Assembly (NCBI GenBank): GCA_017546145.1
Contig: JAFYXN010000013.1
Location: forward strand, 5,213-69,212
Source: Clostridia bacterium
GTDB lineage: Bacteria > Bacillota > Clostridia > Monoglobales > Monoglobaceae
Reading direction: 5' to 3'
DNA: 64,000 nt
Shown: piece after piece, positions 5,510-40,574 of the stretch
How the letters are laid out: every line of letters begins with the position of its first letter
Position numbering within the stretch: position 1 is the stretch's first letter
Notes under the pieces: model-generated
Seen by the model: only the letters and a program-made list of their open reading frames with translations
Database searches by the model: none
Told to the model about the DNA's origin: nothing
Position numbers and translations under genes: made by a program

Positions 5510-6922
5510 ATGCGTAAGACAAAAATAGTTTGTACAATAGGGCCTGCGTCCAACAATGAAGAAACATTAAGCCGCATGTGCCTTGCGGGAATGAATGTGG
5601 CAAGACTGAATTTTTCTCACGGCACGCATGAGGAACATAAAAGAAACATCAGCCTTATAAAAAAGGTCAGAGAGAAGCTGGGGCTTCCCATAGCAATATT
5701 GCTTGATACAAAAGGTCCCGAATACAGAATAGGTATATTTGAAAATAAAAAGATTATCTTAAATGACGGCGATTTATTTACCTTTACAACAGATGATATA
5801 GTAGGAAATACCGAAAGGGTATCAGTAAGCTATAAAGGTCTTACAAATGACATTAATCCGGGCGACAGAATCCTTCTTAACAATGGTCTTGTTGTTTTTG
5901 ATGTTATCGAAGTAAAGGGAAATGATGTGATTTGCAAAACAGTATGCGGCGGCGAGGTTTCTGACAGAAAGAGCATGAGCTTTCCAAACAAGGTGCTGAA
6001 ACAGGTATATCTTTCCGAGCAGGATAAAAAGGATTTACTTTTTGGTATTGAAAACGGAATTGATTTTATTGCTTGCTCTTTTGTGTCGTGCAAGCAGGAT
6101 TTGCTTGATGTCAAGGCGTTTTTAAATAAACACGGAGTAAATGACGTAGAACTTATTGCAAAGATTGAAAATCAAGCAGGAATAGACAATATTGAAGAAA
6201 TATGCAGCGAATGTTCGGGTATTATGATTGGCAGAGGCGATATGGGTGTTGAAATTGCATACGAAAAGCTTCCTGCAATTCAAAAGCATCTTATTACAAA
6301 ATGCCGTATGCTTGGAAAACGCGTAATCACCGCCACCGAAATGCTTGAGTCCATGATTCATAATCCAAGACCTACAAGAGCAGAGATTTCTGATGTAGCA
6401 AATGCGGTTTATGACGGTTCAAGTGCGGTTATGCTTTCGGGTGAAACTGCTGCAGGTAAGTATCCTGTTGAGGCGGTGGGAGCAATGGCAAAGATTGCAG
6501 AGGAAACTGAAAACAATATTCATTACGAAAAACGTTTCAGCAATAATAATTTCAGGATAGAAAACACACTTGATGCTATTTCACATTCAACCTGCTGTAT
6601 GGCAATTGACCTTAATGCAAGTGCAATTGTTGTATGCTCGCATTCGGGGATGACGGCACGAATGGTTTCACGTTTCAGACCGCCTGTTGATATAATAGGT
6701 CTTACAACAAACGAAAAAGCTTCGCGTAAGCTTGCACTCTCATGGGGTGTTACACCGGTTATTGCAGAGGCATATCCGTCTACAGAGGTTCTTTTCTATA
6801 TCGCAAAGAAGAAAGCAACAGAAATCTTTAAGTTAAATTCAAACGATAAAATTATTATAACAGGCGGTGCGACAAACGGCAGTTCGGGAAATACAGACCT
6901 TATAAAAATCGAAACAATTTAA
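5510..6922 (+). CDS. pyk: pyruvate kinase
   Basis: 470 aa. MRKTKIVCTIGPAS..NVARLNFSHG..DTKGPE..MIGRGDMGVE..MLSGETA. Confidence 0.95.
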   Translation: MRKTKIVCTIGPASNNEETLSRMCLAGMNVARLNFSHGTHEEHKRNISLIKKVREKLGLPIAILLDTKGPEYRIGIFENKKIILNDGDLFTFTTDDIVGNTERVSVSYKGLTNDINPGDRILLNNGLVVFDVIEVKGNDVICKTVCGGEVSDRKSMSFPNKVLKQVYLSEQDKKDLLFGIENGIDFIACSFVSCKQDLLDVKAFLNKHGVNDVELIAKIENQAGIDNIEEICSECSGIMIGRGDMGVEIAYEKLPAIQKHLITKCRMLGKRVITATEMLESMIHNPRPTRAEISDVANAVYDGSSAVMLSGETAAGKYPVEAVGAMAKIAEETENNIHYEKRFSNNNFRIENTLDAISHSTCCMAIDLNASAIVVCSHSGMTARMVSRFRPPVDIIGLTTNEKASRKLALSWGVTPVIAEAYPSTEVLFYIAKKKATEIFKLNSNDKIIITGGATNGSSGNTDLIKIETI

Positions 6923-6934
6923 ACAAATATACAA

Positions 6935-6967
6935 AAACGCCGTGCAGATAATATCTGCACGGCGTTT
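6935..6967. terminator. bidirectional terminator between pyk and the permease
   Basis: Near-perfect palindrome AAACGCCGTGCAGATA/TATCTGCACGGCGTTT. Confidence 0.8.
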
Positions 6968-6982
6968 AGTCTGTCTTAAAGC

Positions 6983-8585: not shown

Positions 8586-8614
8586 TTGACTTTATTGCTT
8601 TAGTGTGCTAAAAT
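8586..8614 (+). promoter_or_regulatory. sigma-A promoter of T-box leader 1
   Basis: TTGACT, 17-nt spacer, TAAAAT. Confidence 0.7.
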
Positions 8615-8629
8615 ACAAACATTAAATGC

Positions 8630-8898
8630 GTTTGAGCAAAAATAAGTAGGCGCGTGAAAGTCTTCAGAGAGTTGCCGGTGGCTGTGAGGCAATGGCGGAA
8701 GCGTGGCTGAATACCTTTTGTGAGCAGTGCACCGAACAGGGCTGATCCTCCTAAGTAGGCTGCAACGGGTGTTCCCGTCACAGGACTGAGGTATTGTTTA
8801 GATACCTTTAAAGGCTGCGGTTGTGAAGCTGCAGTGAATTGAGGTGGTACCACGGGTGTTATCCCGTCCTCTGTTTTTAAAACGAGGACGGGTTTTTT
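8630..8898 (+). promoter_or_regulatory. T-box riboswitch leader, specifier most likely UAC (Tyr)
   Basis: Stem I has a K-turn (TGAG/TGAGCA), the S-turn side ATAAGTA, AGAGAG at 8666-8671 and the distal loop GGTGGCTGTGA. The specifier loop reads GAA-TAC-C at 8709-8715. The T-box sequence AATTGAGGTGGTACCACGGG lies at 8837-8856. The terminator CCCGTCCTC/GAGGACGGG plus T6 lies at 8863-8898. Confidence 0.85.
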
Positions 8899-8935
8899 AT
8901 TTGCCCGTCCCCAAAAAGAAAGGGATGTTTTAAAC

Positions 8936-10480
8936 ATGGTATTAAAAATTGGAATGTTGGTAGTTTTCTTTGCGATTATGATTGCTGTAGGTATTTATTG
9001 CAGAAAAAATTCAACTGACGTAAGAGGCTTTGTTCTGGGTGGTCGTGCAGTAGGTCCATGGCTTACAGCGTTTGCTTACGGAACATCTTATTTTTCAGCT
9101 GTTATATTTGTGGGCTATGCAGGACAGTTCGGCTGGAAGTTTGGTATTGCTTCAACTTGGATCGGTATTGGCAATGCTGTTCTTGGCTCTCTTCTTGCGT
9201 GGATGGTTCTGGGACGTCGTACAAGACTGATGTCACAGCATCTTGAAAGCTCAACTATGCCTGAATTTTTTGGCAAAAGATATAGCAGCACCGCACTTAA
9301 AATTGCGGCATCAGTTATTGTATTTATATTTCTTATTCCATACACCGCATCGCTTTATAACGGTCTTTCAAGATTGTTCTCGATGGCTTTTCCGGGAGTA
9401 AGCTACTCGGTTTGTGTTATTGTTATGGCGATTCTTACCGGTATTTATGTTATTGCAGGCGGATATATGGCTACTGCAATTAATGATTTTATACAGGGCG
9501 TTATTATGATTATCGGTATCGTTGCGGTTATTGCGGCGGTGCTTACTCAAAACGGAGGGTTTATAGCTGCTCTCAATGGCCTTGCAGAGATTCATGTTGA
9601 AGGCAACGCACCCGGTGCATTTAACTCGTTCTTCGGTCCTGACCCGCTGAATTTAATGTTTGTTGTAATCCTTACCTCACTCGGTACATGGGGACTTCCT
9701 CAGATGGTGCAAAAATTCTATGCAATAAAAAGCGAGAAGGACATAACAAAGGGCACAATTATTTCAACCGTATTTGCGATTATTGTTGCAGGAGGATGTT
9801 ATTTCCTTGGCGGCTTTGGAAGATTGTTTACAGACAGACTTACCTTCCTTTCGGACGGCTCAATTGAAGGTGGTTTTGATGCAATTATTCCGACAATGCT
9901 TTCAGGACTTCCCGATGTTTTGATTGCAATTGTTATCATATTGGTGCTTTCTGCATCAATGTCAACACTTTCGTCACTGGTTCTTGCATCAAGCTCAACA
10001 CTTACGCTTGACCTTATAAAAGATCATGTTGTAAAAAATATGACAGAGAAGAAGCAGGTTCTTATTATGAGAATCCTTATAGTTGTATTTATTGCAATTT
10101 CTGCATACATAGCTTTAAACAAAGATAAGCTCAGTGCTATTGCCGATATGATGGGCATTTCATGGGGTGCTTTGGCAGGTGCTTTCTTAGCGCCGTTTAT
10201 GTATGGTTTGTACTGGAAGAAGACCAGCAAAGCTGCTGTGTGGGCAAGCTTTATATTTGGTGCGGGAATAATGGTTCTTAATATGCTGTTTAGAGGTGCG
10301 TTTCCTGCAATTCTTCAGTCACCTATCAACAGCGGAGTGATTGCAATGCTCGGCGGCCTGGTTGTTGTTCCGGTTGTCAGCATGGTTACAAGGAAACCTG
10401 AAAAAGCATTGACAGATGAAATGTTTGCGTGCTACAATAAAGAAGTAATTGTTACCGCCAAAAAATCATTGGGCGATTAA
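8936..10480 (+). CDS. sodium:solute symporter (SSS) family transporter
   Basis: 514 aa with about 13 TM segments. GGRAVGPWLTAFAYGTSYFSA is typical of the SSS family (PutP/PanF/ActP-like). Confidence 0.8.
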   Translation: MVLKIGMLVVFFAIMIAVGIYCRKNSTDVRGFVLGGRAVGPWLTAFAYGTSYFSAVIFVGYAGQFGWKFGIASTWIGIGNAVLGSLLAWMVLGRRTRLMSQHLESSTMPEFFGKRYSSTALKIAASVIVFIFLIPYTASLYNGLSRLFSMAFPGVSYSVCVIVMAILTGIYVIAGGYMATAINDFIQGVIMIIGIVAVIAAVLTQNGGFIAALNGLAEIHVEGNAPGAFNSFFGPDPLNLMFVVILTSLGTWGLPQMVQKFYAIKSEKDITKGTIISTVFAIIVAGGCYFLGGFGRLFTDRLTFLSDGSIEGGFDAIIPTMLSGLPDVLIAIVIILVLSASMSTLSSLVLASSSTLTLDLIKDHVVKNMTEKKQVLIMRILIVVFIAISAYIALNKDKLSAIADMMGISWGALAGAFLAPFMYGLYWKKTSKAAVWASFIFGAGIMVLNMLFRGAFPAILQSPINSGVIAMLGGLVVVPVVSMVTRKPEKALTDEMFACYNKEVIVTAKKSLGD

Positions 10481-10501
10481 TAAATTTGATTTTAATAAAA
10501 G

Positions 10502-10536
10502 AAAAGACTGTCTTTTTTGCAGACAGCCTTTTCTGC
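10502..10536 (+). terminator. imperfect hairpin plus TTTTCT (possibly a partial terminator)
   Basis: AAAAGACTGTCT/AGACAGCCTTTT with one mismatch. Only about 25 nt separate it from the next RBS. Confidence 0.45.
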
Positions 10537-10558
10537 CGTTTAAAAAGGAGATATATAA

Positions 10559-12196
10559 ATGCCGATTACAGAGATTTTACAAAAGAATGCGGATTTTTAT
10601 CCAAATGATGTCAGCTTGATTGAAATCAATCCGCAGATGGAAAAACAGTCAAGAATGACATGGCGTGAGTATTCGCTTATTGAGGCAAACCCAAATGAGG
10701 CATACCGCAAGGAAATTACCTGGAGTGAGTTCAATAAGCGTGCAAACAGATTTGCAAATTTTTTGCTTACACGCGGAATAAAGAAGGGCGATAAGGTTGC
10801 AATTCTTTTAATGAACTGCATTGAGTGGCTGCCTGTATACTTTGGTATTCTTAAAATGGGTGCAATGGCGGTTCCGCTCAATTACCGCTACGCATCGGAC
10901 GAAATAAAATACTGTCTTGAACTTGCTGATGCTGATGTTATTATTTTTGGTCCTGAATTTACAGGCCGTATTGAGCAGATTTGCCATAAGGTAAAGAGAA
11001 TAAAAATGTGGCTTTATCATGGCGAGGATTGTCCGACGTTTGCAGAGAGCTACGACAGTCTGGTTTCATATTGCTCAAGTAAAAGTCCGCAGATTAAACT
11101 GACAGATGACGATGATGCGGCAATTTACTTCTCTTCGGGAACAACAGGATTTCCCAAGGCGATTATACATAAACATCAAAGCCTTGTTCATGCTGCAATG
11201 ACCGAACAGAGCCATCATTCACAGACAAAAGATGATGTATTTCTTTGTATCCCGCCGCTTTATCATACCGGTGCAAAAATGCATTGGTTCGGAAGCTTTT
11301 TGGTGGGCGGCAAGGCTGTTATCCTTAAAGGAATTAAACCGGAATGGATTCTTAAAGCCGTGTCTGAAGAAAAGTGTTCAATAGTATGGCTCTTGGTTCC
11401 GTGGGCACAGGATATACTCGACTCAATTGAACGCGGCGAAATAAAGCTTGAAGAGTATGAGATTTCACAGTGGCGGCTTATGCATATCGGTGCACAGCCG
11501 GTTCCGCCAAGCTTAATAAAAAGATGGAAGAATGTATTTCCAAATCATCAATATGACACAAACTATGGCCTTTCTGAGTCAATTGGACCAGGTTGCGTAC
11601 ACTTGGGTGTTGAAAACGAACACAAGGTAGGCGCAATTGGAAAAGCAGGCTTTGGCTGGCAGACAAAAATTGTTGATGAAAACGGCATTGAAGTCGCACG
11701 CGGCGAAGTAGGTGAGCTTGCGGTTAAGGGTCCCGGCGTAATGACAGCTTACTATAAGGATGAAAATGCAACAAATGCCGTTTTAAAGAACGGATGGCTG
11801 TTTACAGGTGATATGGCAAGGGAAGACGAGGACGGATTTATCTTTCTTGTTGACCGCAAAAAGGATGTTATTATTTCGGGCGGCGAAAATCTTTATCCTG
11901 TTCAGATTGAGGACTTTTTGAGGAAGTTTGATAAAATAAGTGACGTTGCAGTTATCGGACTTCCTGATGCACGACTTGGCGAGATAGCTGCGGCTATTAT
12001 TCAGATAAAGGACGGTATGACCGCAACAGAAGACGAAATTAACGATTTTTGTGCTGAACTTCCAAGATACAAGCGGCCAAGAAAAGTTATCTTTGCTGAT
12101 GTGCCGCGCAATCCAACCGGAAAAATTGAAAAACCAAAACTCAGACAAATTTACTGTGGCGACAGTGTTGTGGCACAGCAGAATGAAATCAAATAG
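10559..12196 (+). CDS. AMP-dependent acyl-CoA synthetase/ligase (class I adenylate-forming enzyme)
   Basis: 545 aa. YFSSGTTGFPKAIIH (A3 motif), TGDMAREDEDGFIFLVDRKKDVIISGGENLYP and a C-terminal GKIEK. Confidence 0.85.
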   Translation: MPITEILQKNADFYPNDVSLIEINPQMEKQSRMTWREYSLIEANPNEAYRKEITWSEFNKRANRFANFLLTRGIKKGDKVAILLMNCIEWLPVYFGILKMGAMAVPLNYRYASDEIKYCLELADADVIIFGPEFTGRIEQICHKVKRIKMWLYHGEDCPTFAESYDSLVSYCSSKSPQIKLTDDDDAAIYFSSGTTGFPKAIIHKHQSLVHAAMTEQSHHSQTKDDVFLCIPPLYHTGAKMHWFGSFLVGGKAVILKGIKPEWILKAVSEEKCSIVWLLVPWAQDILDSIERGEIKLEEYEISQWRLMHIGAQPVPPSLIKRWKNVFPNHQYDTNYGLSESIGPGCVHLGVENEHKVGAIGKAGFGWQTKIVDENGIEVARGEVGELAVKGPGVMTAYYKDENATNAVLKNGWLFTGDMAREDEDGFIFLVDRKKDVIISGGENLYPVQIEDFLRKFDKISDVAVIGLPDARLGEIAAAIIQIKDGMTATEDEINDFCAELPRYKRPRKVIFADVPRNPTGKIEKPKLRQIYCGDSVVAQQNEIK

Positions 12197-12211
12197 GAGA
12201 GGATGTATACT

Positions 12212-13948
12212 ATGAAAAAATTATTGCTCGGTAATGCAGCTGTGGCGCGCGGAGCTTATGAAGCGGGCGTAAACGTTGTTGCTTCATACCCCGGAACACC
12301 AAGCACAGAAATTACCGAAGAAATTGTTAAATTTGGTGAAATATATGCGGAATGGTCTCCAAATGAAAAGGTTGCAGCAGAGGTTGCTATCGGTGCATCA
12401 ATTGCCGGCGGCAGAGCCATGAGCTGTATGAAACACGTAGGCCTTAATGTTATGGCAGACCCGGTATTTACGGTTAGCTACATAGGAGTAAACGGCGGTC
12501 TTGTTTTCTGTGTGGCAGATGACCCGGGCATGCACTCATCGCAAAATGAGCAGGATTCCAGACACTACGCAAAGGCATCAAAGATAATGATGCTTGAGCC
12601 GGCAGACTCTGCAGAATGTAAAGAATATACCAAAATGGCATTTGACCTTTCTGAAAAGTTTGATACTCCTGCATTTATCAGACTTTCAACCAGAGTTTCA
12701 CACTCTCAGAGCCTTGTTGAACTGGGTGAAAGAAAGGCTGTTCCCGTTAAACCCTATGAGAAGAATATTCCAAAGCACGTTATGATGCCGGCTATGGCAA
12801 TAAAACGCCATGTTGTTGTGGAAGAAAGAATAGAAGCTCTCAGAGAATTTGCTGAAAGCTCAGAAATTAACACGATTGAAGAAAATGGGTCAAAAATTGG
12901 CGTAATTACTGCCGGAATTGCATACGTATATGCAAAAGAAGCACTTGGTGATAAGGCTGACTTTTTGAAGCTGGGTATGGTCTATCCATTGCCTCGCAAA
13001 AAAATAGCAGATTTTGCAAAGAAATATGACAAAGTTTATGTTATTGAAGAACTTGACCCGGTTATCGAAGAAGAATGCAGAGCAATGGGTCTTGAAGTCC
13101 TTGGAAAGGATTTGTTCACACTTCTTGGTGAATACACACCCGAAATGATAAAAAAGGTCATTCTGGGTGAAAAGCCTGCTGAAAAAATTATGCCTGCTGA
13201 AAACATTCCTGTAAGACCTCCGGTTATGTGTGCAGGCTGTCCGCACCGCGGAACATTCTATGTACTCAAAAAATTGGGACTTGTTGTTTCCGGCGACATC
13301 GGTTGTTATACCCTTGGAGCAGCGCTTCCGCTTCAGTCTGTTGATACTACAATTTGTATGGGTGCATCAGTAAGTGCGGCACATGGTATGGCAAAGGCAC
13401 AGGGTGCTGAATTTAACAAAAAGCTTGTATCTGTAATTGGTGACTCGACGTTTATGCATTCAGGTATTACAGGACTTATTGACATTGTTTACAACAAGGG
13501 CAATAATACCGTAATCATTCTTGATAACTCAATCACCGGTATGACCGGACATCAGGATAATCCTACAACGGGCTATACAATCCGTGGCGAAGAAACAAAG
13601 CAGGTAAATCTTATTGCCCTTTGCAAGGCATGCGGTATTGACCATGTTACAGTATGTGACCCGTTCAATATAAAAGAATTTGAAAAGGTTGTTAAAACAG
13701 AGGTTGAAAGGGAAGAACCCTCTGTAATAATTGCTCAGCGTCCGTGCGCACTTTTAAAATCAGTTAAGTATACGGGTCATTGCACAATTTCCGACAACTG
13801 TAAGAACTGCAAAATGTGTATGAAGCTTGGCTGTCCTGCTATCACCCTTAAAGAAGGCAAGGTAGTTATCGACAGCACTCAGTGCAACGGTTGCGGACTG
13901 TGCGTAAATGTTTGTCCTTTTGAAGCAATAGTAAAGGAGGAAGACTGA
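12212..13948 (+). CDS. iorA: indolepyruvate:ferredoxin oxidoreductase alpha subunit
   Basis: LLGNAAVARGAYEAGVNVVASYPGTPSTEI, a TPP-binding region, and two C-terminal CxxCxxCxxxCP clusters. I prefer the ATG at 12212 because of its spacing from GGAGAGG; the ORF-track start is 12203. Confidence 0.9.
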   Translation: MKKLLLGNAAVARGAYEAGVNVVASYPGTPSTEITEEIVKFGEIYAEWSPNEKVAAEVAIGASIAGGRAMSCMKHVGLNVMADPVFTVSYIGVNGGLVFCVADDPGMHSSQNEQDSRHYAKASKIMMLEPADSAECKEYTKMAFDLSEKFDTPAFIRLSTRVSHSQSLVELGERKAVPVKPYEKNIPKHVMMPAMAIKRHVVVEERIEALREFAESSEINTIEENGSKIGVITAGIAYVYAKEALGDKADFLKLGMVYPLPRKKIADFAKKYDKVYVIEELDPVIEEECRAMGLEVLGKDLFTLLGEYTPEMIKKVILGEKPAEKIMPAENIPVRPPVMCAGCPHRGTFYVLKKLGLVVSGDIGCYTLGAALPLQSVDTTICMGASVSAAHGMAKAQGAEFNKKLVSVIGDSTFMHSGITGLIDIVYNKGNNTVIILDNSITGMTGHQDNPTTGYTIRGEETKQVNLIALCKACGIDHVTVCDPFNIKEFEKVVKTEVEREEPSVIIAQRPCALLKSVKYTGHCTISDNCKNCKMCMKLGCPAITLKEGKVVIDSTQCNGCGLCVNVCPFEAIVKEED

Positions 13949-13949
13949 T

Positions 13950-14516
13950 ATGACTAAAAAGATAATGATTGTTGGCGTCGGAGGTCAGGGAACTCTTCTT
14001 GCCAGCAGAATTTTAGGTAATGTAGCGATAAACGAAGGCTATGATGTTAAAGTGTCCGAGGTTCATGGTATGAGCCAACGCGGCGGTAGCGTTGTAACCT
14101 ATGTTAAGTACGGAGATAAAGTGTATTCACCAATAATTGATCAGGGCGAGGCAGATACAATTCTTGCATTTGAACTGCTTGAAGCATACAGAGCACTGCC
14201 GTATCTGAAAAAAGGCGGTAAAATGATTGTAAACAATCAGCAGATAGACCCCATGCCGGTGATAACTGGAGCGGCAGAATACCCCGGGGATATTGCAGGA
14301 AAGCTTAGCAACGAGGTGGATACAACCGTTGTTGACGCGCTTAGTGCAGCAAAAGAAGCAGGTAATATAAAAGCTGTTAATGTTGTGCTTATCGGTGTTA
14401 TGGCAAGAACAACGGATATTGCTTATGAAAAATGGATTGAAACCATTAAAACAACCGTTCCGCCGAAGTTTTTGGACGTAAATCTCAAAGCATTTGAGAT
14501 AGGATATAATCTATAA
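13950..14516 (+). CDS. iorB: indolepyruvate:ferredoxin oxidoreductase beta subunit
   Basis: 188 aa. IMIVGVGGQGTLLASRILG. It starts 2 nt after iorA. Confidence 0.9.
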   Translation: MTKKIMIVGVGGQGTLLASRILGNVAINEGYDVKVSEVHGMSQRGGSVVTYVKYGDKVYSPIIDQGEADTILAFELLEAYRALPYLKKGGKMIVNNQQIDPMPVITGAAEYPGDIAGKLSNEVDTTVVDALSAAKEAGNIKAVNVVLIGVMARTTDIAYEKWIETIKTTVPPKFLDVNLKAFEIGYNL

Positions 14517-14528
14517 GGGGTGTATAAA

Positions 14529-15833
14529 ATGAAATACTGGCAGGAAGAAATCGAAACCATGCCTCGTGAGCAAATTAAAAAAGACCAAAGTAAAAAGCTC
14601 AAGTGGCAGGTTGCAAGAATGTACGAAAAGGTTGAGCTGTTCAGAAAAAGAATGGATGAGGCAGGGCTCAAGCCTGATGATATAAACGGTGTTGAAGACC
14701 TCCACAAGCTTCCGTTTTCATATAAGCAGGATTTAAGAGATTATTATCCTTATGGACTTTTTGCTGTACCTATGAAGGATATAAGACGTGTTCATGCATC
14801 ATCAGGAACAACCGGTAAGCAGATTGTTGTTGGATATACTGATAACGACCTTGAAATGTGGGCGGATTGTTTTGCAAGAATGCTTATCGCAACAGGGGCA
14901 GACGAAGATTCGTTTGTCCATGTCGGATATGGTCTTGGCTTGTTTACAGGTGGTTTTGGTGCGCATGACGGTGCTGTAAGAATTGGCGCGACAGCAATAC
15001 CGATTTCTGCAGGCAATACGCAAAGACAGATTCAGACAATGATTGATTTTGGCTCAACGGTTCTTTGCTGCACACCGTCTTATGCAATGTATTTGGGTGA
15101 AACAATTGAAGAAATGGGTCTTAAGGATAAGCTTCAGTTAAAAGCCGGAATTTTCGGCGCAGAGCCATGGACAGAGGAAATGCGTGCACAAATAGAAGAA
15201 AAATTGGGACTTAAGGCTTATGATATTTATGGCCTTTCTGAAATTATGGGTCCGGGTGTTTCTTATGAATGCGAGTATCAATGCGGTATGCACGTTTGTG
15301 AGGATAACTTTATTCCTGAAATTATTGACCCTGACACAGGCGAAGTGCTCCCTGAGGGCGAGTGGGGCGAGCTTGTGTTTACCACAATAACAAAAGAGGG
15401 CTTCCCCCTCATCAGATACCGTACAAGGGATATTTGTTCTCTTAATTATGAACCCTGCAAATGTGGCAGAACACATGTCAGAATGAACAAGCCTCAGGGC
15501 AGAACAGACGATATGCTGATTATTCGCGGTGTAAACGTATTCCCGTCACAGATTGAAGAAGTTCTCCTTAAAATCGGCGGAGAAATTACCCCCAACTATC
15601 AGATTATAGTTGACCGTGAAAACAATACAGATACCTTCCAGGTTAATGTCGAAATGAGTGAAGAACTGTTCTCGGACGGCATCAAAGCAATCCAGAAGGT
15701 TGAAAAGCAGATTTCCGACAGCCTAAGAAGCACACTGGGTATTGGCCCCAAGGTTAACCTTGTTAACCCCAAATCAATAGAACGCAGCGAAGGCAAGGCA
15801 AAGCGTGTTATTGATAAGCGTAAGCTTAAATAA
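14529..15833 (+). CDS. paaK: phenylacetate-CoA ligase family
   Basis: PaaK-type N-terminus ([26 protein letters not shown]), HASSGTTGK and [16 protein letters not shown]. The ATG at 14529 lies 8 nt after AAGGGG; the track start is a GTG at 14520. Confidence 0.85.
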
Positions 15834-15850
15834 TTGAAAGGAGATATATT

Positions 15851-16264
15851 ATGTTTATAAAACAGCTTTCGATTTTTGTTGAAAATAAAGCAGGCAGACT
15901 TCAGGACATCATCAATGCTCTGGGCGAAAATGATGTTAATATCAGCGCACTGTCAATTGCGGATACCACCGATTTTGGTATTCTGCGAATTATTGTTGAC
16001 AATCCTGACAAAGCAAAGCTTGTGCTTAAAGGGATGGGTGTTATTTCAAAAACAACGGATGTTGTTGCGGTTTATATTGATGACCGCAGCGGTGGTCTTG
16101 CATCTGTCTTGAATCTTGTATCCGATGCGGGAATAGGCATTGAGTATATGTATGCATTTCTTGGCAGAACAGAGGGCAAGGCACTTATGGTTCTTAAAGC
16201 TGATGATGAAGTTAAGCTTGAAAAAGTCCTGATGGAAAACGGTGTAGAGCTTGCAGAGCAATAA
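15851..16264 (+). CDS. ACT domain-containing protein
   Basis: 137 aa with two ACT-like halves (LSIFVENKAGRL.. and VVAVYIDDRSGGL..). An ACT protein is commonly found next to ior and paaK. Confidence 0.75.
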   Translation: MFIKQLSIFVENKAGRLQDIINALGENDVNISALSIADTTDFGILRIIVDNPDKAKLVLKGMGVISKTTDVVAVYIDDRSGGLASVLNLVSDAGIGIEYMYAFLGRTEGKALMVLKADDEVKLEKVLMENGVELAEQ

Positions 16265-16286
16265 TTATTCAGAAAGGAGACGTGGC

Positions 16287-17312
16287 ATGGCTATAAAAAA
16301 GCAACTATTTGGCAAGGCTTTTGATAAGGATGTTTATCTTTTTACACTCGACAACGGAAAAGACCTGACGGCAGAAATTATAAATTACGGCGGAATAATA
16401 AAAAGCCTGATTTATAAGGGCGTTGACGTTGTTCTTGGAAGAGATACAATGGAAGAATATCTAAGCAACAGCGGATATTTGGGAGCGCTGGTCGGCAGAA
16501 ACTCAAACAGAATTGCAAATTCTGAGTTTGTGCTAAACGGCAAAAAATATAAGCTCTGCTCAAATAATGGAAAGTGCAATCTTCATGGCGGAAAGCAGGG
16601 CTTTTCTAACAGAGTATGGGATTTTGAATGTAAAGACGAAATTGAGCCTGAACTGATTTTAACATTGAATAGTCCTGACGGCGATGAAGGCTTTCCGGGC
16701 AATGCGGAAATAAAAGTTACCTACAAGCTGACTAAGCGCAATTCAATTGAAGTTCATTATGAGGGCGTATGTGACAGCGATACAGTTATTAATATGACAA
16801 ACCATTCGTATTTTAATCTTAACGGACATGGTTCGGGTACAGTTGATAAGCATATTATGAAGCTTGAAAGTGAGTATTTTACTCCAAACAACGAAGAATG
16901 TTACCCGACAGGCGAAGTTAAAAAGGTTGAAGGAACGGCGTTTGATTTTGCAACACCCAAAAAATTAGAGGATGGATTCAATGCTGATTGCCAACAAATA
17001 AAAATGTTTGGCGGCTATGACCACAACTTTGCAATCTCAGGCAACGGCTTCAGGAAATTCTGTGAGCTTAAAGGTGATTTAACAGGAATTATAATGGAAA
17101 GCTATACAGACTGCGTTGGTGTGCAGGTCTATACAAGCAATTCGCTTGATGAGCCAAATCCATGCAAGGATGGTGCAGTATATGGATTGCATCAGGGAAT
17201 TTGTCTTGAAACGCAAGCTTTCCCAAATGCAGTAAACTACTCGCATTTTCCGTCTTGCGTGCTAAAGAAGGGCACAAAATACGATACAAAAACGGAATAT
17301 TTATTTAAATAA
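16287..17312 (+). CDS. galM: aldose 1-epimerase (galactose mutarotase)
   Basis: NLHGG..GF, TNHSYFNL and the C-terminal LETQAFPNAVN motifs. The ATG at 16287 lies behind AAAGGAGA; the track start at 16251 overlaps the ACT gene. Confidence 0.85.
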   Translation: MAIKKQLFGKAFDKDVYLFTLDNGKDLTAEIINYGGIIKSLIYKGVDVVLGRDTMEEYLSNSGYLGALVGRNSNRIANSEFVLNGKKYKLCSNNGKCNLHGGKQGFSNRVWDFECKDEIEPELILTLNSPDGDEGFPGNAEIKVTYKLTKRNSIEVHYEGVCDSDTVINMTNHSYFNLNGHGSGTVDKHIMKLESEYFTPNNEECYPTGEVKKVEGTAFDFATPKKLEDGFNADCQQIKMFGGYDHNFAISGNGFRKFCELKGDLTGIIMESYTDCVGVQVYTSNSLDEPNPCKDGAVYGLHQGICLETQAFPNAVNYSHFPSCVLKKGTKYDTKTEYLFK

Positions 17313-17444: not shown

Positions 17445-17480
17445 AAACCCGACAAGTTAAATCTTGTCGGGTTTTGTTGT
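17445..17480. terminator. bidirectional terminator (galM unit versus fic)
   Basis: AAACCCGACAAG-N6-CTTGTCGGGTTT, flanked by A7 and TTTTGTTGT. Confidence 0.75.
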
Positions 17481-17521: not shown

Positions 17522-18418
17522 CTAACCCTTATATGGTACTTTAAAATAGGCCAAATACTTTTTAAACTTATCCTGTGCTGATAGGCAGGTATCAAGCAAA
17601 TAACCCTTTTCGTTGTTCCATTCAGACAAACCTCTGTAATAGAACATTTTAAGGCTGTCATCAATAATAAACGGTACAATATTATTTTTTAGGCATTCCT
17701 TAAACATAATAAGTCTGCCAACACGCCCATTACCATCCTGGAATGGATGCAAGGCTTCAAACTGATAATGAAACTCTATAACATCTTCCAAGGTATGCTC
17801 ATGCTTTTGATTATAAGATTTCAAAAGTTCTTTGATTTTCTGCTCCACAGTTTCAGGACTTGCAGTTTCTTTTCCACCAACTTCGTTAGGAAGCTTTTTA
17901 TATTCTCCCAAATTAAACCAATCTTTTCTTGAATCGGAGGTTCCGGATTTCAAAGTAAAGTGCAGTTCTTTTATAAACTTTTCCGTGAGCTTATAGGTGC
18001 TATTTTCAATTATCATATTAATACATTTGAAATGATTTGCCGTCTCAATAATATCATCAACGTTTAAGGCATCATTTTCTGCTCCAATAGTATTAGTCTC
18101 AAAAATATATCTTGTTTGGTCGTGGGTTAATTTGCTGCCTTCAATATGATTTGAGTTATAGGTAAGCTCTATTTGAATTTTGTGATAAATTCCGCCCATA
18201 AGGGAAGTCTTTTTCTCTTCTTTTAACCTTTCAAGAAGGTTTTGGGGATCACAATTTTTCTTATTTATTCTTTCGGGTTTTTGTGCATCTTCAGGAATAT
18301 TCCAGGTTTTGCCCGTTAAAAACGCTCCGGGAATCTTGTTTTGAGCACAGTAATTCCGTACCGTCCGTTCTGACATATTCCATTTTTTTGCAATATCTGC
18401 AACTGATAAATAATGCAT
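17522..18418 (-). CDS. Fic family protein with N-terminal HTH (class II, intramolecular inhibitory motif)
   Basis: The Fic motif is HPFQDGNGRVGRL and the inhibitory motif is SNHIEG. The N-terminal part LSVADIAKKWNMSERTVRNYC looks like an HTH. The ATG at 18418 lies behind AGAGGTGA; the track start is 18460. Confidence 0.85.
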   Translation of the reverse strand: MHYLSVADIAKKWNMSERTVRNYCAQNKIPGAFLTGKTWNIPEDAQKPERINKKNCDPQNLLERLKEEKKTSLMGGIYHKIQIELTYNSNHIEGSKLTHDQTRYIFETNTIGAENDALNVDDIIETANHFKCINMIIENSTYKLTEKFIKELHFTLKSGTSDSRKDWFNLGEYKKLPNEVGGKETASPETVEQKIKELLKSYNQKHEHTLEDVIEFHYQFEALHPFQDGNGRVGRLIMFKECLKNNIVPFIIDDSLKMFYYRGLSEWNNEKGYLLDTCLSAQDKFKKYLAYFKVPYKG

Positions 18419-18513
18419 ACTGTTTATCACCTCTGCAACACTTTTTGCCGTTATCGGCAAAATTTCTTCTAAAACGTCATAACGTTTTTTGTTTCTTGCT
18501 GATATTTTTTAAA

Positions 18514-18543
18514 AAATAAATACACCATATAGTGTATTTATTT
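18514..18543 (-). terminator. terminator of the tRNA-Ser pair
   Basis: Perfect 12-bp stem AAATAAATACAC/GTGTATTTATTT with a 6-nt loop, and a T-rich tail on the minus strand. Confidence 0.7.
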
Positions 18544-18544
18544 G

Positions 18545-18635
18545 TGGCGGAGAAGGAGAGATTTGAACTCTCGCGCCGCTTTCACGACCTACACCCTTAG
18601 CAGGGGCGCCTCTTCGGCCTCTTGAGTACTTCTCC
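18545..18635 (-). tRNA. tRNA-Ser (anticodon GCU), CCA encoded
   Basis: The reverse complement folds as GGAGAAG..anticodon loop CTGCTAA..long variable arm..GGTTCAAATCC-like T-loop..CTTCTCC-G-CCA. Confidence 0.9.
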
Positions 18636-18664
18636 GAATTTAAAATTTGTTATTAAAATAAAAA

Positions 18665-18751
18665 TGGCGGAGAGGCAGAGATTCGAACTCTGGGTGCTTT
18701 CGCATCACTAGTTTTCAAGACTAGCTCCTTAAACCACTCGGACACCTCTCC
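18665..18751 (-). tRNA. tRNA-Ser (anticodon UGA), CCA encoded
   Basis: The reverse complement reads GGAGAGGTGTCCGAGTGG..CTAGT-CTTGAAA-ACTAG..variable arm..GTTCGAATC..CCTCTCC-G-CCA. Confidence 0.9.
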
Positions 18752-18783
18752 GTAAAACGTATCGCTTTGTTTGCGACTTTGAC

Positions 18784-18812
18784 AGTATAACATATTTGTG
18801 CAAGGATGTCAA
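18784..18812 (-). promoter_or_regulatory. sigma-A promoter of the tRNA-Ser pair
   Basis: On the minus strand: TTGACA, 17-nt spacer, TATACT. Confidence 0.7.
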
Positions 18813-19014
18813 GGCTTATTTTAAGAAATTTATAATTTTTATTTAAAGAGCTTTTGCCTTTGAATTTATCAATTTGTAACAATAAAAAAAACATAAAATT
18901 GTTATTTACACAACTTGACAGTAAAAGTATAATGTGGTATTCTAAAAATAATAAAATTAAAAGTATGCCTGGGAGTGTAAGGGTATATAAAAATAAATGA
19001 AGGAGAATGACAAA

Positions 19015-22000
19015 ATGATTGTAAAAAAACTAATTGCAGCAATAATGATATTTACAATGTTGATGACGTGCGTTCAACCTTGTTTTGCGGCAACAATCAA
19101 CGATACCACGGACTTTGTTCCCAATCCTTTAGAGATGGATTTGGCTGTTGGTGTTACTGCACGTAAAAGTGGGACATCAGATGCATATACCTCGGCTCTT
19201 AGCATAGAGGATGTAGTTGGCGGTGTTGGTGTTGATTATCAGGCAACACTTAATATGAAACCGATTAGGGATATATGCACAGGTGCTTTTATTACAAATG
19301 TAATTGGAAATGACCAGTCTTTAAAAACGGAATTTGACAGTGCGCCAGTTACGACGACTGTAAGTGTTGAGATTGAATATCCTTCTTCAGCCTCAATTGG
19401 CGCAGATTTATCTACAGCAGGTGTTTTGGAAGCAGGAAGCATCTTCAGTGAAGCGTCACCTAGAAGTATTAACGGAAACAAGGTGACAATTACATATAAA
19501 AATGCTGATAGTATTACAGCAAGAGCTCTTGTTGATAATGTAAATTCATATCTTGCTGATATTATATTTACTCTTAATGATGCGGTGACATATTCAACAG
19601 ACGGTTATCATACTGTATCTGTTAAATTGACAGGAGAAACACAAATTGCGTTTTCGTCAAAAGTACAAAAGGTGCAGTATACGGGTGAAGCATCTCACAT
19701 CGTATCAGCTTTAACGATGCATGTGCTTGAAGTTGTTCCTGCTAAGCCTGCAACCTGTACTGACAGAGGTTGGACAGAGGGTGTTAAGTGTAAAACACAC
19801 AGTAGTTATAACTGTGGTGCTCATGGCTTGATTGAACCCCAAAACACAATAGCGCCTTTAGGACACACCACAAGCTTTATAGCAGAAACACCTGCAACTT
19901 GTACAACAGATGGTGTAAAGGCACATTATGTTTGTTTGGTTTGTAAAAAGGACTTTAAAGAAGCATCTGCAACAACAGAAATGAGTGCTGTAGACCTTAA
20001 GATTACAGCAGAAGGACACAAATATACTATTTCTGTAGATGCTGTTTCTGCAACTTGTACAAAAGACGGTTTATCGAGTGGATATATTTGTTCCGTTTGT
20101 AACCACGCAACAACAAGAACCGTAGTTCCTGCAAACGGACATACCGTTGTGGATATTACTGCAGTTCCTGCAACCTGTACAACAGATGGTGCAACCATAG
20201 GTAAAAAATGTTTGTCTTGTGGTGTTGTTCTTATTGCTCCTGTAGTTGTTGCTGCAACAGGTCATAAGTATGACGATAACTGGTCAGAAACTTTAGCTCC
20301 CACAGAATCATCAACCGGTTCAAAGGAAAGAGTATGTACTGTCTGCGGTCAGGGAAAAGAAACTGTTACAATTCCTAAGTTGGAGCACACTTGTGCGGCA
20401 GATCCAAATGCAAGTGTTGTAACAAAAGAAGCAACTTGTACAGAAACAGGCTTACTTCAGAAATATTGTGCTTGCGGTCAGCCTTTTGGTGAAGCAGAAG
20501 TGATTGCAGCAAAGGGTCACGACACAACACACGTTGTGGGCAAAACAGCAACATGTACCGATAAGGGTATAATTGACCACTATGCATGTAAAAACTGTCA
20601 GGGCTTGTATCGTGATGCTGAGTGCACAAAAGCGGTTCAGAGTGCAGAAATTCCTGTTGACAAAACAAATCATGTTGACGGAAGAAGAACCATTCCTGCA
20701 GTTGCCGCAACTTGCGATAAGGACGGTCTTACCGCAGGTGAAAAATGTACAGGATGTAACACTATTACAACACCTCAGACAAAAATCCCCAAGCTCAGTG
20801 ATAATCCTGAAGCTAACTACGAGCGTGTTTCCTATGTGGCTCCTACCTGTGAGGCTGATGGTGTAATCGAACATTATCATTGTTCAAATTGTAATAAAGA
20901 CTATACAATTCATGAATTAGAAGTTCTTGACGATTGTTCAATTCCAAAAACTGGTCACCATTGGGGTGATGTAATCATTGATACTCCTTCAACTGAAACT
21001 ATAAAGGGTGAAGGTCACAGAGTTTGTACAAATAACTCGGATCATACTATCACAGTGGATATAGCATTGAAAGAACACGTTCACAACGAGGAATGTGAGG
21101 AAATAATCAAGCAACCTTCATGTACCGAAAAGGGTAAAAAGAGAGTTGTTTATACCTGCTGTGGTGAAATTAAAAACAAAGAGGTTAACAACGGAATAAT
21201 TGAAATTCCTGCAAAAGGGCACAATTTTAAAACAATAGAGAAAGCTCCTGACTGTTTTAGAAATGGTATCAAGAAGCATAAATACTGTGCAGTATGTGAT
21301 AAAGCTTTTGACTTTACAACAGAAGTTGAGATAACCGATTTAGAAACTTTGAAAACCCATAAACTTACACATAAGTTTGGTAATTGGACAGATAACAAAC
21401 GTGAATGTGAATATTGTCATGAAATAGTTCACAGAAAACAAGAAAATCATAATCACAATGTAAAAGAACATGGTGGTCTCAAGGGTGAAGAGGGAGATAT
21501 CAGAGAAAAACGTGCAGACGAAGAACCCAACAGAGACGTTAAAGTTGAATCAAAGATTACTATTGAAGAAAGAGAAATCTCTGAAAAACTTGATAACGAA
21601 GTACGCAAAGACGAAAAGGCTCATGAGGATAAGGTGGTTTTGGAAATTACTGTTGAAAAGGAAACTAAAACTACCGACACAACTACCAGCAATGTTCTTG
21701 ATATAGATAGAGAAATCGTTAAGGAAACAGAAGATTTGATTGTAATCGAAATTGCTGTTCCTGCAGGAATGCAAGATTTTGTTGACTTCCTCGTTCACAG
21801 ACTTCATATTGATGATCAGGGAGCAGAAAGTTTTGACGTTATTAAAGTTGCACCCAATAACGATGGCGAATTTATCAAGCTTATCAAGAGTGGTGACAAG
21901 GTTGAGAAAATCGAGCTTCATGTAAAGAAATTCTCAGAGTATGCCGTTATTGGTTATGACAAGGTTGTAAATGTTGATCCTGTTACATCTTCATCCGGTG

Positions 22001-34489: not shown

Positions 34490-34757
34490 TTAAAAGCTAT
34501 GACGAAGAAGGTACGAAGCGTGACGTCTTCACAGAGAGTCGGTGGGTGGTGCAAACCGATAGCGGCAGTTTCAATGTACCCCTCACTTCCGAGCTGAAGG
34601 TCAGAACACCGATATGGCAAGTAGATACCTTCCGTGAATGCTACGTTAAGTGCAAAAGGCTTGTTAGAGCCTGCAGAGCGGCGAATTTTTTCGCAATTTG
34701 AGTGGTACCGCGAGTGTTTTCACCCGTCTCAAAGCTTTTCTTTGAGACGGGTATTTT
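34490..34757 (+). promoter_or_regulatory. T-box riboswitch leader, specifier most likely CUC (Leu)
   Basis: K-turn and basal helix ATGAC-GAAG ... CTTC-CGAGC. AAGGTA forms the S-turn side, AGAGAG lies at 34533-34538, and the distal loop is GGGTGGTGCAA. CTC-A at 34582-34585 sits immediately 5' of the basal helix. The T-box sequence AATTTGAGTGGTACCGCGAG lies at 34695-34714. The terminator CCCGTCTCAAAG/CTTTGAGACGGG plus TATTTT lies at 34723-34757. Confidence 0.85.
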
Positions 34758-34799
34758 ATTATCATAATCCAATTTTTTACATAAAGACGGAGAAATAAA

Positions 34800-35468
34800 A
34801 TGAAATACAATTATAAAAGGATAACATTGCTTTCTGGTCATTACGGAAGCGGTAAGACAAATATTGCTGTAAATATGGCGTTTGACCTGAAAAAAAACTT
34901 TCACAATGTAACCATTGCTGACCTCGATATTGTAAACCCGTATTTTAGAACAAAGGACAGCCAGACCGAGCTTGAGCAGAGCGGAATAAAGCTTATATGC
35001 TCCGAGTATGCAAATTCAAACGTTGATATACCGGCACTTCCTCAGGAAATGTATTCTGTGATTGATGACAAATCCCAAAGAGCGGTTATTGATATAGGCG
35101 GTGATGACCGCGGGGCACTTGCTCTTGGAAGATATTCAAAGGGTATCATTGAAGAAAATGACTATGATATGCTATTTGTGATAAATTGCTATCGTCCATT
35201 GACTTGTGATGTCCAAACTACGCTTGAGGTCATGAGAGAAATCGAAAATGCCGGAAGGATAAAATTTACAGGAATTGTAAACAATTCAAACCTTGGCGAA
35301 GAAACAACAGCGGACGATATATTGGATTCGCTTGATTATGCATCAGATATTTCAAAAGCAACAAGACTTCCCATTGTGGCAACCTGTGTTAAAGAAGAAC
35401 TGTTTGATGTGTTGTCGGAAAGAATTTCAAATCTGTTTGCTTTAAAATTACAAAAAAAGATTATTTAA
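34800..35468 (+). CDS. P-loop NTPase (SIMIBI class, MinD/ParA/GPN-loop-like), function unknown
   Basis: 222 aa. Walker A is GHYGSGKT, followed by IADLDIVNPYF and a later DIGGDDRG. Confidence 0.6.
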   Translation: MKYNYKRITLLSGHYGSGKTNIAVNMAFDLKKNFHNVTIADLDIVNPYFRTKDSQTELEQSGIKLICSEYANSNVDIPALPQEMYSVIDDKSQRAVIDIGGDDRGALALGRYSKGIIEENDYDMLFVINCYRPLTCDVQTTLEVMREIENAGRIKFTGIVNNSNLGEETTADDILDSLDYASDISKATRLPIVATCVKEELFDVLSERISNLFALKLQKKII

Positions 35469-35484
35469 TGAAGGAGAGATAAAT

Positions 35485-35691
35485 ATGGCAAAGCTTACAT
35501 TTAAAACAGATAACTGCAAAGGCTGTGGACTTTGTGTTGACGCGTGCCCCAAGCAGGTTCTGGAACTGGCAAAAGACAAAATAAACAAAAAAGGTCATCA
35601 CCCTGTTGAAACGGTTAATCCCGATGCGTGCATCGGTTGTGCGTTTTGTGCAACAATGTGTCCCGATTGTATTATTACAGTAGAAAGGTAG
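35485..35691 (+). CDS. 2-oxoacid:ferredoxin oxidoreductase delta subunit (2x[4Fe-4S] ferredoxin)
   Basis: 68 aa. CKGCGLCVDACP and CIGCAFCATMCP. Confidence 0.9.
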   Translation: MAKLTFKTDNCKGCGLCVDACPKQVLELAKDKINKKGHHPVETVNPDACIGCAFCATMCPDCIITVER

Positions 35692-35700
35692 GAGAATATT

Positions 35701-38053: not shown

Positions 38054-38074
38054 GTTTTAAAGGAGAACATAAAA

Positions 38075-39139: not shown

Positions 39140-39173
39140 GGTCTTTTATTTAGTTTATTAGGAGGAAAGAAAA

Positions 39174-40571: not shown

Positions 40572-40574
40572 ATT

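Follow-up and report, generated by a model that had tools for sequence, protein, structure and literature searches.

An analysis is reported here of positions 8586–16264 of a 64,000-nucleotide stretch of DNA (the window) from the metagenome-assembled genome (MAG) of an uncultured Clostridia bacterium, in which a T-box leader, very probably specifying tyrosine, stands in front of a sodium:solute symporter of the SSS family (called SSS below), an AMP-forming acyl-CoA ligase (LIG), both subunits of an indolepyruvate:ferredoxin oxidoreductase (IOR; genes iorA and iorB), a second, PaaK-like ligase and a protein carrying a pair of ACT domains, all on the + strand. The explanation favoured on balance, and held with somewhat better than even confidence, is that a tyrosine T-box gates the uptake of an arylacetate, its activation and its reductive carboxylation to tyrosine. 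Comparison with relatives and the logic of the regulation give good support to the biosynthetic direction of this scheme; import of 4-hydroxyphenylacetate (4-HPA), a role for LIG as the corresponding ligase, and read-through between the two genes in this particular stretch would each be plausible.

The mechanism proposed is that, as uncharged tRNA-Tyr builds up, the antiterminator would form and RNA polymerase would enter the symporter gene. SSS and LIG would then together bring in and trap an aromatic carboxylate, 4-HPA being the likeliest, with LIG forming the CoA thioester, IorAB using reduced ferredoxin to carboxylate this reductively to 4-hydroxyphenylpyruvate, and a housekeeping aminotransferase yielding tyrosine. 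As parts of a more general iorAB module, the PaaK-like ligase and the ACT protein would probably deal with phenylacetate, and perhaps indoleacetate, subject to feedback from an amino acid. Transcripts continuing past a weak hairpin beyond the symporter gene (10500–10534) would tie LIG-iorAB-paaK-ACT to tyrosine starvation, and a candidate promoter within the 3′ end of that gene may add some basal expression.

The leader and its specifier

Upstream of the leader lies a sigma-70-type promoter at 8586–8614 (TTGACT at 8586–8591, a spacer of 17 nucleotides, and TGcTAAAAT at 8606–8614), which has 10 of 12 hexamer matches and the TG of an extended −10 element. The leader itself occupies 8622–8898 and comprises Stem I, the Stem II/IIA-B region, Stem III, an antiterminator and a terminator. 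Segment 8622–8874 matches the Rfam T-box model RF00230 with 112.4 bits (gathering score 93; E = 4.9e-24) over model positions 1–219 of 219, and this full-length match, together with the hexamers, bears out the promoter and complete leader proposed in an earlier sequence-only reading of this DNA, all of whose elements are in fact present at or near the places where it put them.

The conserved T-box sequence, GGUGGUACCACG, is found at 8843–8854 and includes the bulge UGGUACC (8845–8851), whose UGGU would pair with the NCCA end of a tRNA having A as its discriminator base, as bacterial tRNA-Tyr does; GGUGGUA is invariant across the leader family. The terminator has a 9-bp G+C-rich stem (8863–8871 with 8884–8892) followed by six U at 8893–8898, and the helix 8863–8892 with its U-run is also seen in the minimum-free-energy fold. 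Since its 5′ arm, CCCGUCCUC, is a strand common to terminator and antiterminator, the two structures are mutually exclusive; the symporter gene begins 37 nucleotides past the U-run.

For comparison, 80 species-representative loci carrying relatives of the symporter were collected (relatives' loci are labelled with L-numbers, L001 and so on), and a homologous T-box is present at 27 of them; these 27 leaders, that of the window and one ior-linked leader constitute an alignment of 29, referred to as A2. T-boxes were detected using RF00230 at its gathering score of 93, and also using E-value thresholds, a motif regular expression and an nhmmer profile made from 28 leaders, it being necessary to bear in mind that runs at the gathering score skip the phenylalanine leaders present in L047 and L107, at 82 bits, and a leucine leader elsewhere in the window (85.5 bits), all of which were recovered through the E-value thresholds and nhmmer. 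RNAalifold predicts 53 pairs over the 29 leaders, and in 38 of these there are compensatory changes on both sides. Taken together, the model match, the specifier loop, the exclusivity of antiterminator and terminator and these compensatory changes place the leader within RF00230, and it is predicted to be a canonical, transcription-attenuating T-box, unremarkable as a representative of the family.

The specifier loop runs G8709 A A U8712 A C8714 C8715, that is GAA-UAC-C, and directly after it comes UUUUGU, a strand of the basal helix, so the tyrosine codon UAC (8712–8714) has C8715 next to it where a purine is usual. Columns 103–105 of A2 hold UAC in 28/28 SSS-linked leaders, and the same triplet is found in L139, L142 and L144, which are human-gut metagenome contigs. 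Because the base 3′ of the codon is C in 7 of these 31 leaders (the window, L002, L010, L012 and the three gut contigs) and A in the other 24, C may be regarded as a tolerated and recurrent variant. The A:U pair closing the loop (columns 28:107) is kept in 28 of 29 leaders, which gives the canonical seven-nucleotide strand GAA-NNN-R, while two leaders, L065 and L077, have an extra U between GAA and UAC. TBDB (PMC7778990) takes as the codon positions 2–4 of the loop, counting back from its 3′ end, and this rule also yields UAC. It is thus highly probable, as far as sequence comparison can tell, that the specifier reads tRNA-Tyr. This had been the assignment of the sequence-only reading, which noted the C in the purine's place, and it stands, UAC being invariant in 31 homologous leaders; that reading had further called for a covariance-model alignment to fix the specifier; A2 and Rfam's alignment of L139 favour UAC, while Rfam's alignment of the window itself is ambiguous.

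The competing register would begin the codon one base later, at ACC or ACA, and make the leader a threonine sensor. Both of these triplets occur in the family and both are threonine codons, and Rfam's alignment of the window does leave one more U unpaired, which puts ACC at positions 2–4. However, Rfam places L139 in the UAC register, the shift breaks the closing A:U pair, and a purine follows the codon in 24/31 leaders when UAC is read vs 0/31 for threonine. Furthermore, closely related genomes would have to use two different isoacceptors, UGGU in the bulge does not match U73, which is the final base of the two tRNA-Thr genes known from related contigs, and in leaders ahead of iorAB-paaK the same columns hold a phenylalanine codon. 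A threonine specifier is hardly credible, and was rejected for want of the following purine and the closing pair, for its two isoacceptors and for the mismatch between bulge and U73.

The symporter, the ligases and the ior genes

The symporter gene (8936–10480) matches PF00474 with 188.6 bits (cut-off 22.8), which agrees with the sodium:solute symporter named as the cargo in the sequence-only reading; the SSS family is also that of ActP and PaaL. Its score against TIGR00813 (170.6 bits) is slightly below the cut-off of 184, and it falls short of every NCBIfam equivalog cut-off, among them those for PutP (202 bits, cut-off 515), PanF (160, cut-off 328) and MctC (64, cut-off 670), while models for ActP give 27–42 bits where 750–1099 are required. 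On these scores it is assigned to a PutP/PanF-like branch with no named subfamily, from which, therefore, no substrate can be transferred, and a PDB sequence search gave generic relatives only (SGLTs), allowing no substrate inference. SSS may be an importer of 4-HPA, that is of an arylacetate, or alternatively of tyrosine.

LIG (10559–12196, 545 amino acids; PF00501 and PF13193) is a FadD13/4CL-like AMP-forming acyl-CoA ligase. Of the 108 models that it matches the best is PRK06187, at 422.6 bits vs a cut-off of 476, and none is above cut-off among the matches listed. Its best PDB match is FadD13; FadD5, 4CL, MatB and feruloyl-CoA synthetase are also found, with 4CL and feruloyl-CoA synthetase ranking under FadD13, FadD5 and other fatty-acyl or malonyl-CoA enzymes. 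It is a plausible candidate for a 4-HPA-CoA ligase.

The argument for treating SSS and LIG as partners comes from gene neighbourhoods. Among 42 species loci having at least 5 kb on either side, LIG lies within 10 kb of SSS in 19 and is its adjacent, same-strand neighbour in 14, which is far commoner than the chance expectation. In the relatives of the window the order is SSS before LIG; in Lachnospiraceae, in Ruminococcus and in two Treponema MAGs it is LIG before SSS, with gaps of 9–34 nucleotides. Some of the Lachnospiraceae and Treponema loci have no ior genes nearby, the arrangement there being purB-purF-LIG-SSS-rho. Because the two genes are neighbours in both orders across Oscillospirales, Lachnospiraceae and Treponema, they are interpreted as partners that take up and activate a carboxylate, and it is mainly because SSS pairs with an AMP-forming ligase that an aromatic acid is preferred over tyrosine as its substrate; among such acids 4-HPA is preferred because of the tyrosine specifier and the 6-nucleotide junction between LIG and iorA.

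No T-box was found upstream of LIG-SSS in Lachnospiraceae or Treponema (motif expression and nhmmer, and for 9 of the loci also Rfam at its gathering score), from which it follows that T-box control is restricted by lineage, and no regulator genes were found beside the LIG-SSS pairs that lack a T-box, where purB, purF and rho stand instead. Examples from Lachnospiraceae are L021, L022 and L073 (approximately 5.3–13.1 kb), where purB and purF are followed by LIG-SSS, the ior genes not being nearby; the contig of L022 runs on beyond SSS, and rho is downstream there. A different feature is seen at the Lawsonibacter symporter of L047, which has no T-box of its own, where a 14-bp inverted repeat, TATCACTTTTATGC ... 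GCATAAAAGCGATA (at about 9810–9870), spans the promoter and looks like a candidate protein operator.

A small gene of the Amidohydro_2 family (PF04909), for which NCBIfam offers no name, recurs in this setting across several families. It sits between SSS and LIG in L015 (11595–12410), L018 (1603–2394) and L019 (11630–12421), and is found near the symporter or ligase also in L042 (9133–9987), L053 (9124–9984) and L043 (15224–16153), in each of these three on the − strand; a paralogue in the window (43103–43906, 32% identical) ends the leucine module described below.

As to what the T-box controls in relatives, each of the 31 tyrosine leaders found heads a unit that contains the symporter. Where other genes of interest are present, LIG comes after SSS or, in L028, L139, L142 and L144, before it: L028, from a Ruminococcus MAG, reads T-box(UAC, 109 bits)-LIG-SSS, and the three gut contigs read T-box(UAC, 126 bits)-LIG-SSS-IorA-IorB-PaaK-ACT on one strand. 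In L047 and L107 the homologous leader (nhmmer E values of 4e-37 and 2e-36; 82 bits and E 2e-16 by Rfam, hence sub-gathering) carries UUC-A, for phenylalanine, in the specifier columns and precedes a TrpR-family gene and iorA-iorB, then paaK-ACT where the contig is long enough, with LIG divergent. Tyrosine leaders pair with SSS and LIG and phenylalanine leaders with iorAB-paaK, no exception having been seen among the leaders found.

IorA (12203–13948) is the alpha subunit of an arylpyruvate (indolepyruvate):ferredoxin oxidoreductase (TIGR03336, 744.3 bits vs 650.9) and IorB (13950–14516) the IOR beta subunit (NF005325, 293.3 bits vs 230); POR_N, TPP_enzyme_C and Fer4 domains are present, and the two subunits score as IorAB equivalogs. 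The next gene (14520–15833, with a GTG start) encodes an AMP-forming ligase that matches PF14535 and has an AMP-binding_C_2 domain; its 545.7 bits against TIGR02155 are under the equivalog cut-off of 646.3, the match spanning the whole model, and it may be called PaaK-like, a predicted arylacetate-CoA ligase. The ACT-domain-pair protein (15851–16264; PF19571, 109.4 bits vs 23.5), whose gene comes after that for PaaK in most related loci, is likely to be an amino-acid-binding regulatory subunit. Intergenic gaps from LIG through ACT are 6, 1, 3 and 17 nucleotides, so that the tightly packed order of iorA, iorB, PaaK-type ligase and ACT given previously, with gaps of 1–17 nucleotides, is confirmed for the three junctions after iorA, the LIG-iorA gap being 6.

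A metagenome scan with an IorA query provided a second set of loci, from which 35 well-flanked ior-centred ones were counted: iorAB is accompanied by PaaK in 32, LIG in 20, SSS in 9 and a TrpR-like gene in 7. These co-occurrence counts for PaaK and LIG argue that the possession of two different ligases is a conserved design. The sequence-only reading had singled out the two CoA ligases of the cluster, and both are indeed there; what had seemed a puzzle resolves into two modules, iorAB-paaK-ACT being a general one known from methanogens and Bacteroides, and SSS with LIG an add-on pair. The TrpR-family gene (PF01371) is small and lies directly 5′ of iorA in many Oscillospirales contigs (L047, 4485–4799 on the − strand; L107, 4648–4929; and about 20 more loci among L081–L129), only two of which, L047 and L107, also have the T-box with its phenylalanine specifier; its product may be an aromatic amino acid sensor for the ior cluster. 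In L015 an OLE RNA (18385–19020, 487 bits) lies about 130 nucleotides past the ACT gene.

How far LIG and the genes beyond it share the control of SSS in the window turns on the 78-nucleotide spacer between the two. This contains an imperfect hairpin of 14 pairs (10500–10534, −16 kcal/mol), 19 nucleotides past the SSS stop codon and 24 before the LIG ATG, and for a 101-nucleotide segment that surrounds it the fold has z = −2.9. GCCGUUU comes after the long stem on the + strand, and CCUUUUCU after a shorter 6-bp form. The imperfect hairpin previously noted is confirmed, with a U-tract that is poor on this strand, and the element is predicted to be at best a weak terminator, or else one affecting mRNA stability. 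Hairpins of unrelated sequence stand at the matching spot in L001, L002, L003, L005, L010, L034 and L068. In L009, L011, L016 and L017 the spacer is 14–41 nucleotides and forms at most a marginal hairpin (0 to −4.4 kcal/mol), and in L004 it is 45 nucleotides with a short 6-bp hairpin of −8.0 kcal/mol. It is from relatives only that read-through of the hairpin in the window may be deduced.

It had also been supposed that there was no room for a separate promoter ahead of LIG. This does not hold, as a near-consensus site lies at 10409–10438, within the last 70 nucleotides of SSS (TTGACA, 18 nucleotides, TACAAT with TG; 11/12 matches). The genes from LIG onwards may for this reason have an input independent of the T-box, and the candidate promoter may keep the enzymes at a basal level whatever the state of tyrosine supply. 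Only L001 and L002, the nearest relatives, retain it (as TTGACA-18-TATAAT), and it is absent from all others; as it overlaps conserved codons (C-Y-N), its conservation is not informative on its function. The gut contigs have strong spacer folds of their own: in L139 (2431–2514 and 4051–4157), and likewise in L142 and L144, G+C-rich hairpins of −25 to −36 kcal/mol occupy the LIG-SSS and SSS-IorA spacers, with a weaker fold (−16 to −18 kcal/mol) between IorB and PaaK. Spacer hairpins of this kind could, we infer, be attenuators or stabilisers within the operon which set the ratio of transporter to enzymes.

Pathway direction and competing explanations

Knowledge of aryl-acid salvage in rumen bacteria, at the level of physiology, dates from the 1960s. 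Rumen microbes make phenylalanine from phenylacetate (PMC7356843), and for Methanococcus maripaludis the conversion of aryl acids to aromatic amino acids through IOR is attributed to Porat et al., as cited in PMC4162585. The tyrosine-to-4-HPA route of Clostridium scatologenes uses a 2-oxoacid:ferredoxin oxidoreductase (OFOR) with a phosphotransacylase and a kinase, and catabolic clusters in Peptostreptococcales have Pta/Ack or ADP-forming ligases, whereas the combination of IOR with an AMP-forming arylacetate ligase in Bacteroides is considered probably biosynthetic, as in methanogens (PMC13285125). Both ligases in the window are AMP-forming by their domain matches, and because of this, and because induction by uncharged tRNA fits supply and not degradation, the biosynthetic direction is preferred. 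The anabolic course from arylacetate through arylacetyl-CoA to arylpyruvate that the sequence-only reading put forward remains the most coherent one, given that there are relatives with a tyrosine or phenylalanine T-box directly heading LIG or iorAB.

There are nevertheless a number of observations that weigh against arylacetate uptake and activation under T-box control. Profile and structure searches gave no substrate information for SSS or LIG, the PDB neighbours of LIG being generic and allowing no substrate inference, and the closest NCBIfam models for SSS are PutP and PanF, not ActP-type carboxylate carriers. No aminotransferase gene lies in the cluster. The symporter is alone, with convergent or unrelated neighbours, at 15 of 28 T-box loci, which is the classic layout for a transporter of the cognate amino acid, and since about half of the T-box relatives carry it alone, the conserved target of the T-box is the transporter and not the ior cluster. 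Operons of LIG-iorAB-paaK-ACT without any T-box are common, and in the window itself both a stable hairpin and a near-consensus promoter separate SSS, under its T-box, from LIG. An alternative, judged rather unlikely, is that SSS is a plain tyrosine importer and LIG-iorAB-paaK-ACT a separate unit that happens to lie beside it, driven from 10409–10438 or otherwise regulated. It has on its side, besides the solitary symporters, the hairpin and the 11/12 promoter match, the fact that every tyrosine T-box found is tied to SSS when LIG-ior operons often have none, that the closest model, PutP, is for an amino-acid carrier, and that the T-box-controlled transporters known to date (Wels 2008, PMC2494555) each move the amino acid cognate to their T-box. 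What a simple tyrosine importer leaves unexplained is the linkage of LIG with SSS in both orders and with gaps of 9–34 nucleotides, in lineages where either the T-box or nearby ior genes are missing, as well as the T-box-LIG-SSS and T-box-LIG-SSS-ior arrangements; the internal promoter, moreover, is kept in two nearest relatives only.

If an acid is indeed imported, it might be some other relative of tyrosine (3-(4-hydroxyphenyl)propionate, p-coumarate or 4-hydroxyphenyllactate), or the system might serve all arylacetates, with tRNA-Tyr reporting a general aromatic shortage; this we judge improbable. The presence of 4-coumarate-CoA ligases and feruloyl-CoA synthetase among the solved relatives of LIG would be in keeping with it, as would the recurrence of the Amidohydro_2 gene beside SSS or LIG, that Pfam family including decarboxylases and hydratases of phenolic acids, and plant phenolic acids are, as is generally known, abundant in herbivore guts. 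Against this, LIG is 6 nucleotides 5′ of iorA here and near iorAB in 20/35 loci, and the CoA substrate of IOR is arylacetyl-CoA; an Amidohydro_2 gene occurs also in the leucine module, where no phenolic substrate would be expected. Far less credible still is a catabolic reading, in which imported tyrosine would be transaminated, IOR would oxidise the product to 4-HPA-CoA, and an arylacetate would be left as fermentation product. IOR is reversible, which would permit this. The discussion in PMC13285125 also mentions a link between the formation of phenylacetate and the IOR of Bacteroides thetaiotaomicron. However, the ligases are AMP-forming, no Pta/Ack or ADP-forming enzyme is present, and a switch turned on with uncharged tRNA-Tyr would be degrading tyrosine just when it was scarce. 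Uptake and reductive carboxylation of an arylacetate, most likely 4-HPA, therefore continues to be the explanation preferred, with the grades of confidence given at the outset.

Surroundings, wider regulon and comparison with known systems

The transcription unit may extend past 16264, because galM (aldose 1-epimerase; 16288–17312, + strand; PF01263; PRK11055, 272.7 bits vs 240) follows only 23 nucleotides after the ACT stop codon, with its true start taken as the ATG at 16288 (the open reading frame being 16251–17312) and a ribosome-binding site at 16274–16280, and because the first terminator-like element past the cluster is a G+C-rich 12-bp hairpin at 17445–17474, the T-run of which is on the − strand. 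The adjacency of galM to the cluster was not seen in relatives, and it is possible that it is a passenger cistron, co-transcribed with the cluster. The flanks are ordinary chromosome, with genes for pyruvate kinase and a Fic protein, two tRNA-Ser genes and, on the opposite strand, one for a uracil permease. There is no tRNA-Tyr gene in the window, nor are there aro, tyrA or aminotransferase genes in the rest of its 64,000 nucleotides, this being a statement about the window and not about the whole genome. An rli40 match at 6896–6970 (26.6 bits vs 100) was dismissed as chance. The nearest relatives of the organism come from herbivore hindgut and rumen, under the labels Acutalibacteraceae, Monoglobus and Oscillospiraceae.

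A second T-box module had been reported in the same window, and it too is confirmed, although its leader (34490–34734) scores 85.5 bits, below the Rfam gathering score. Its specifier is CUC-A, for leucine, and the module (34490–43906) continues with a P-loop NTPase, alpha, beta and gamma subunits of a VorB-type OFOR (542 bits vs 399), IlvE, a LeuA-like protein, an 842-amino-acid fusion of an AP_endonuc_2 TIM-barrel with an AMP ligase, and the Amidohydro_2 protein. Since LIG and the ligase domain of the fusion are only 28% identical, the parallel between tyrosine and leucine modules is one of logic and not of recent duplication, and it supports a wider regulon of T-box-gated salvage; a homologous leader in L014 (12838–13079, − strand) has AUC-A, for isoleucine. 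Directly after the leucine module lies a gene for a large serine recombinase (44137–45492), which hints at the boundary of a mobile element.

It may be suggested, though tentatively and with less than even confidence, that T-boxes of gut and rumen Oscillospirales gate a set of modules for the salvage of fermentation acids, in each of which an acid importer is combined with a CoA ligase of the AMP-forming kind and a 2-oxoacid synthase that depends on ferredoxin, the whole answering to one tRNA. In that case the symporter would be the first importer identified that supplies 4-HPA to biosynthesis, and LIG would be a CoA ligase dedicated to 4-HPA. The keys to these modules may be tyrosine for SSS and LIG with or without iorAB, phenylalanine for iorAB-paaK-ACT, and leucine or isoleucine for VOR, IlvE and the ligase fusion. 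If this is true, T-boxes control the uptake of a precursor that is not itself an amino acid. The locus extends the T-box regulon to a further family of transporters and to further classes of enzyme, and it provides candidate genes for the missing uptake step and the tyrosine-specific activation step of the rumen arylacetate pathway. It has been debated whether gut clusters of IOR and arylacetate-CoA ligase make phenylacetate and 4-HPA, from which metabolites active in the host derive, or consume them for amino acids; a switch turned on with uncharged tRNA-Tyr or tRNA-Phe would constitute direct regulatory evidence for biosynthesis in Clostridia that does not depend on annotation from sequence. 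No paper joining the terms T-box and indolepyruvate was found in the literature collection searched, which does not cover TBDB or RegPrecise, and the argument from tRNA charging to the direction of IOR appears to be new. What is new otherwise is the cargo and the use of a T-box for precursor uptake that it implies, the riboswitch class itself being known.

Of the known systems with which the locus may be compared, the closest for the leader is the founding tyrosine T-box, that of Bacillus subtilis tyrS, with which it shares RF00230, the competing terminator and antiterminator, the UAC codon and the match of the UGGU bulge to a discriminator A. Unlike tyrS, it has C rather than a purine after the codon (here and in 6 homologues), and its cargo is no synthetase or classical biosynthetic gene but an SSS symporter, CoA ligases and a ferredoxin-dependent 2-oxoacid oxidoreductase. 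As in the T-box-controlled amino acid transporters surveyed by Wels 2008 (PMC2494555), the T-box is directly 5′ of a transporter and the specifier predicts which amino acid pool is served; the families in that survey are ABC, APC, DAACS, LIVCS, MFS, NhaC and NSS, SSS not being included, and the neighbourhoods here suggest a precursor acid and not the amino acid. The coupling of a carboxylate importer to an AMP-forming ligase that traps its substrate as a CoA ester has precedents in acs-yjcH-actP of E. coli and in the Pseudomonas phenylacetate permease PaaL (PMC3224230) with its ligase, but those systems are catabolic and regulated by proteins, and the symporter here lies outside the ActP branch. 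IorAB with a PaaK-type AMP-forming ligase, and often ACT, is shared with the IOR systems of M. maripaludis and Bacteroides, for which the arylacetate-to-arylpyruvate direction has been proposed (Porat et al., cited in PMC4162585; PMC13285125), while a second, FadD-type ligase, a dedicated symporter and T-box control are found here and not there. Finally, HpdDEFG/HpdJ/HpdK of C. scatologenes (PMC13285125) has the same intermediates, namely 4-hydroxyphenylpyruvate, 4-HPA-CoA and 4-HPA, but its OFOR is of the four-subunit VOR type, accompanied by a phosphotransacylase and by a kinase, and the pathway gains ATP and physiologically works the other way round.

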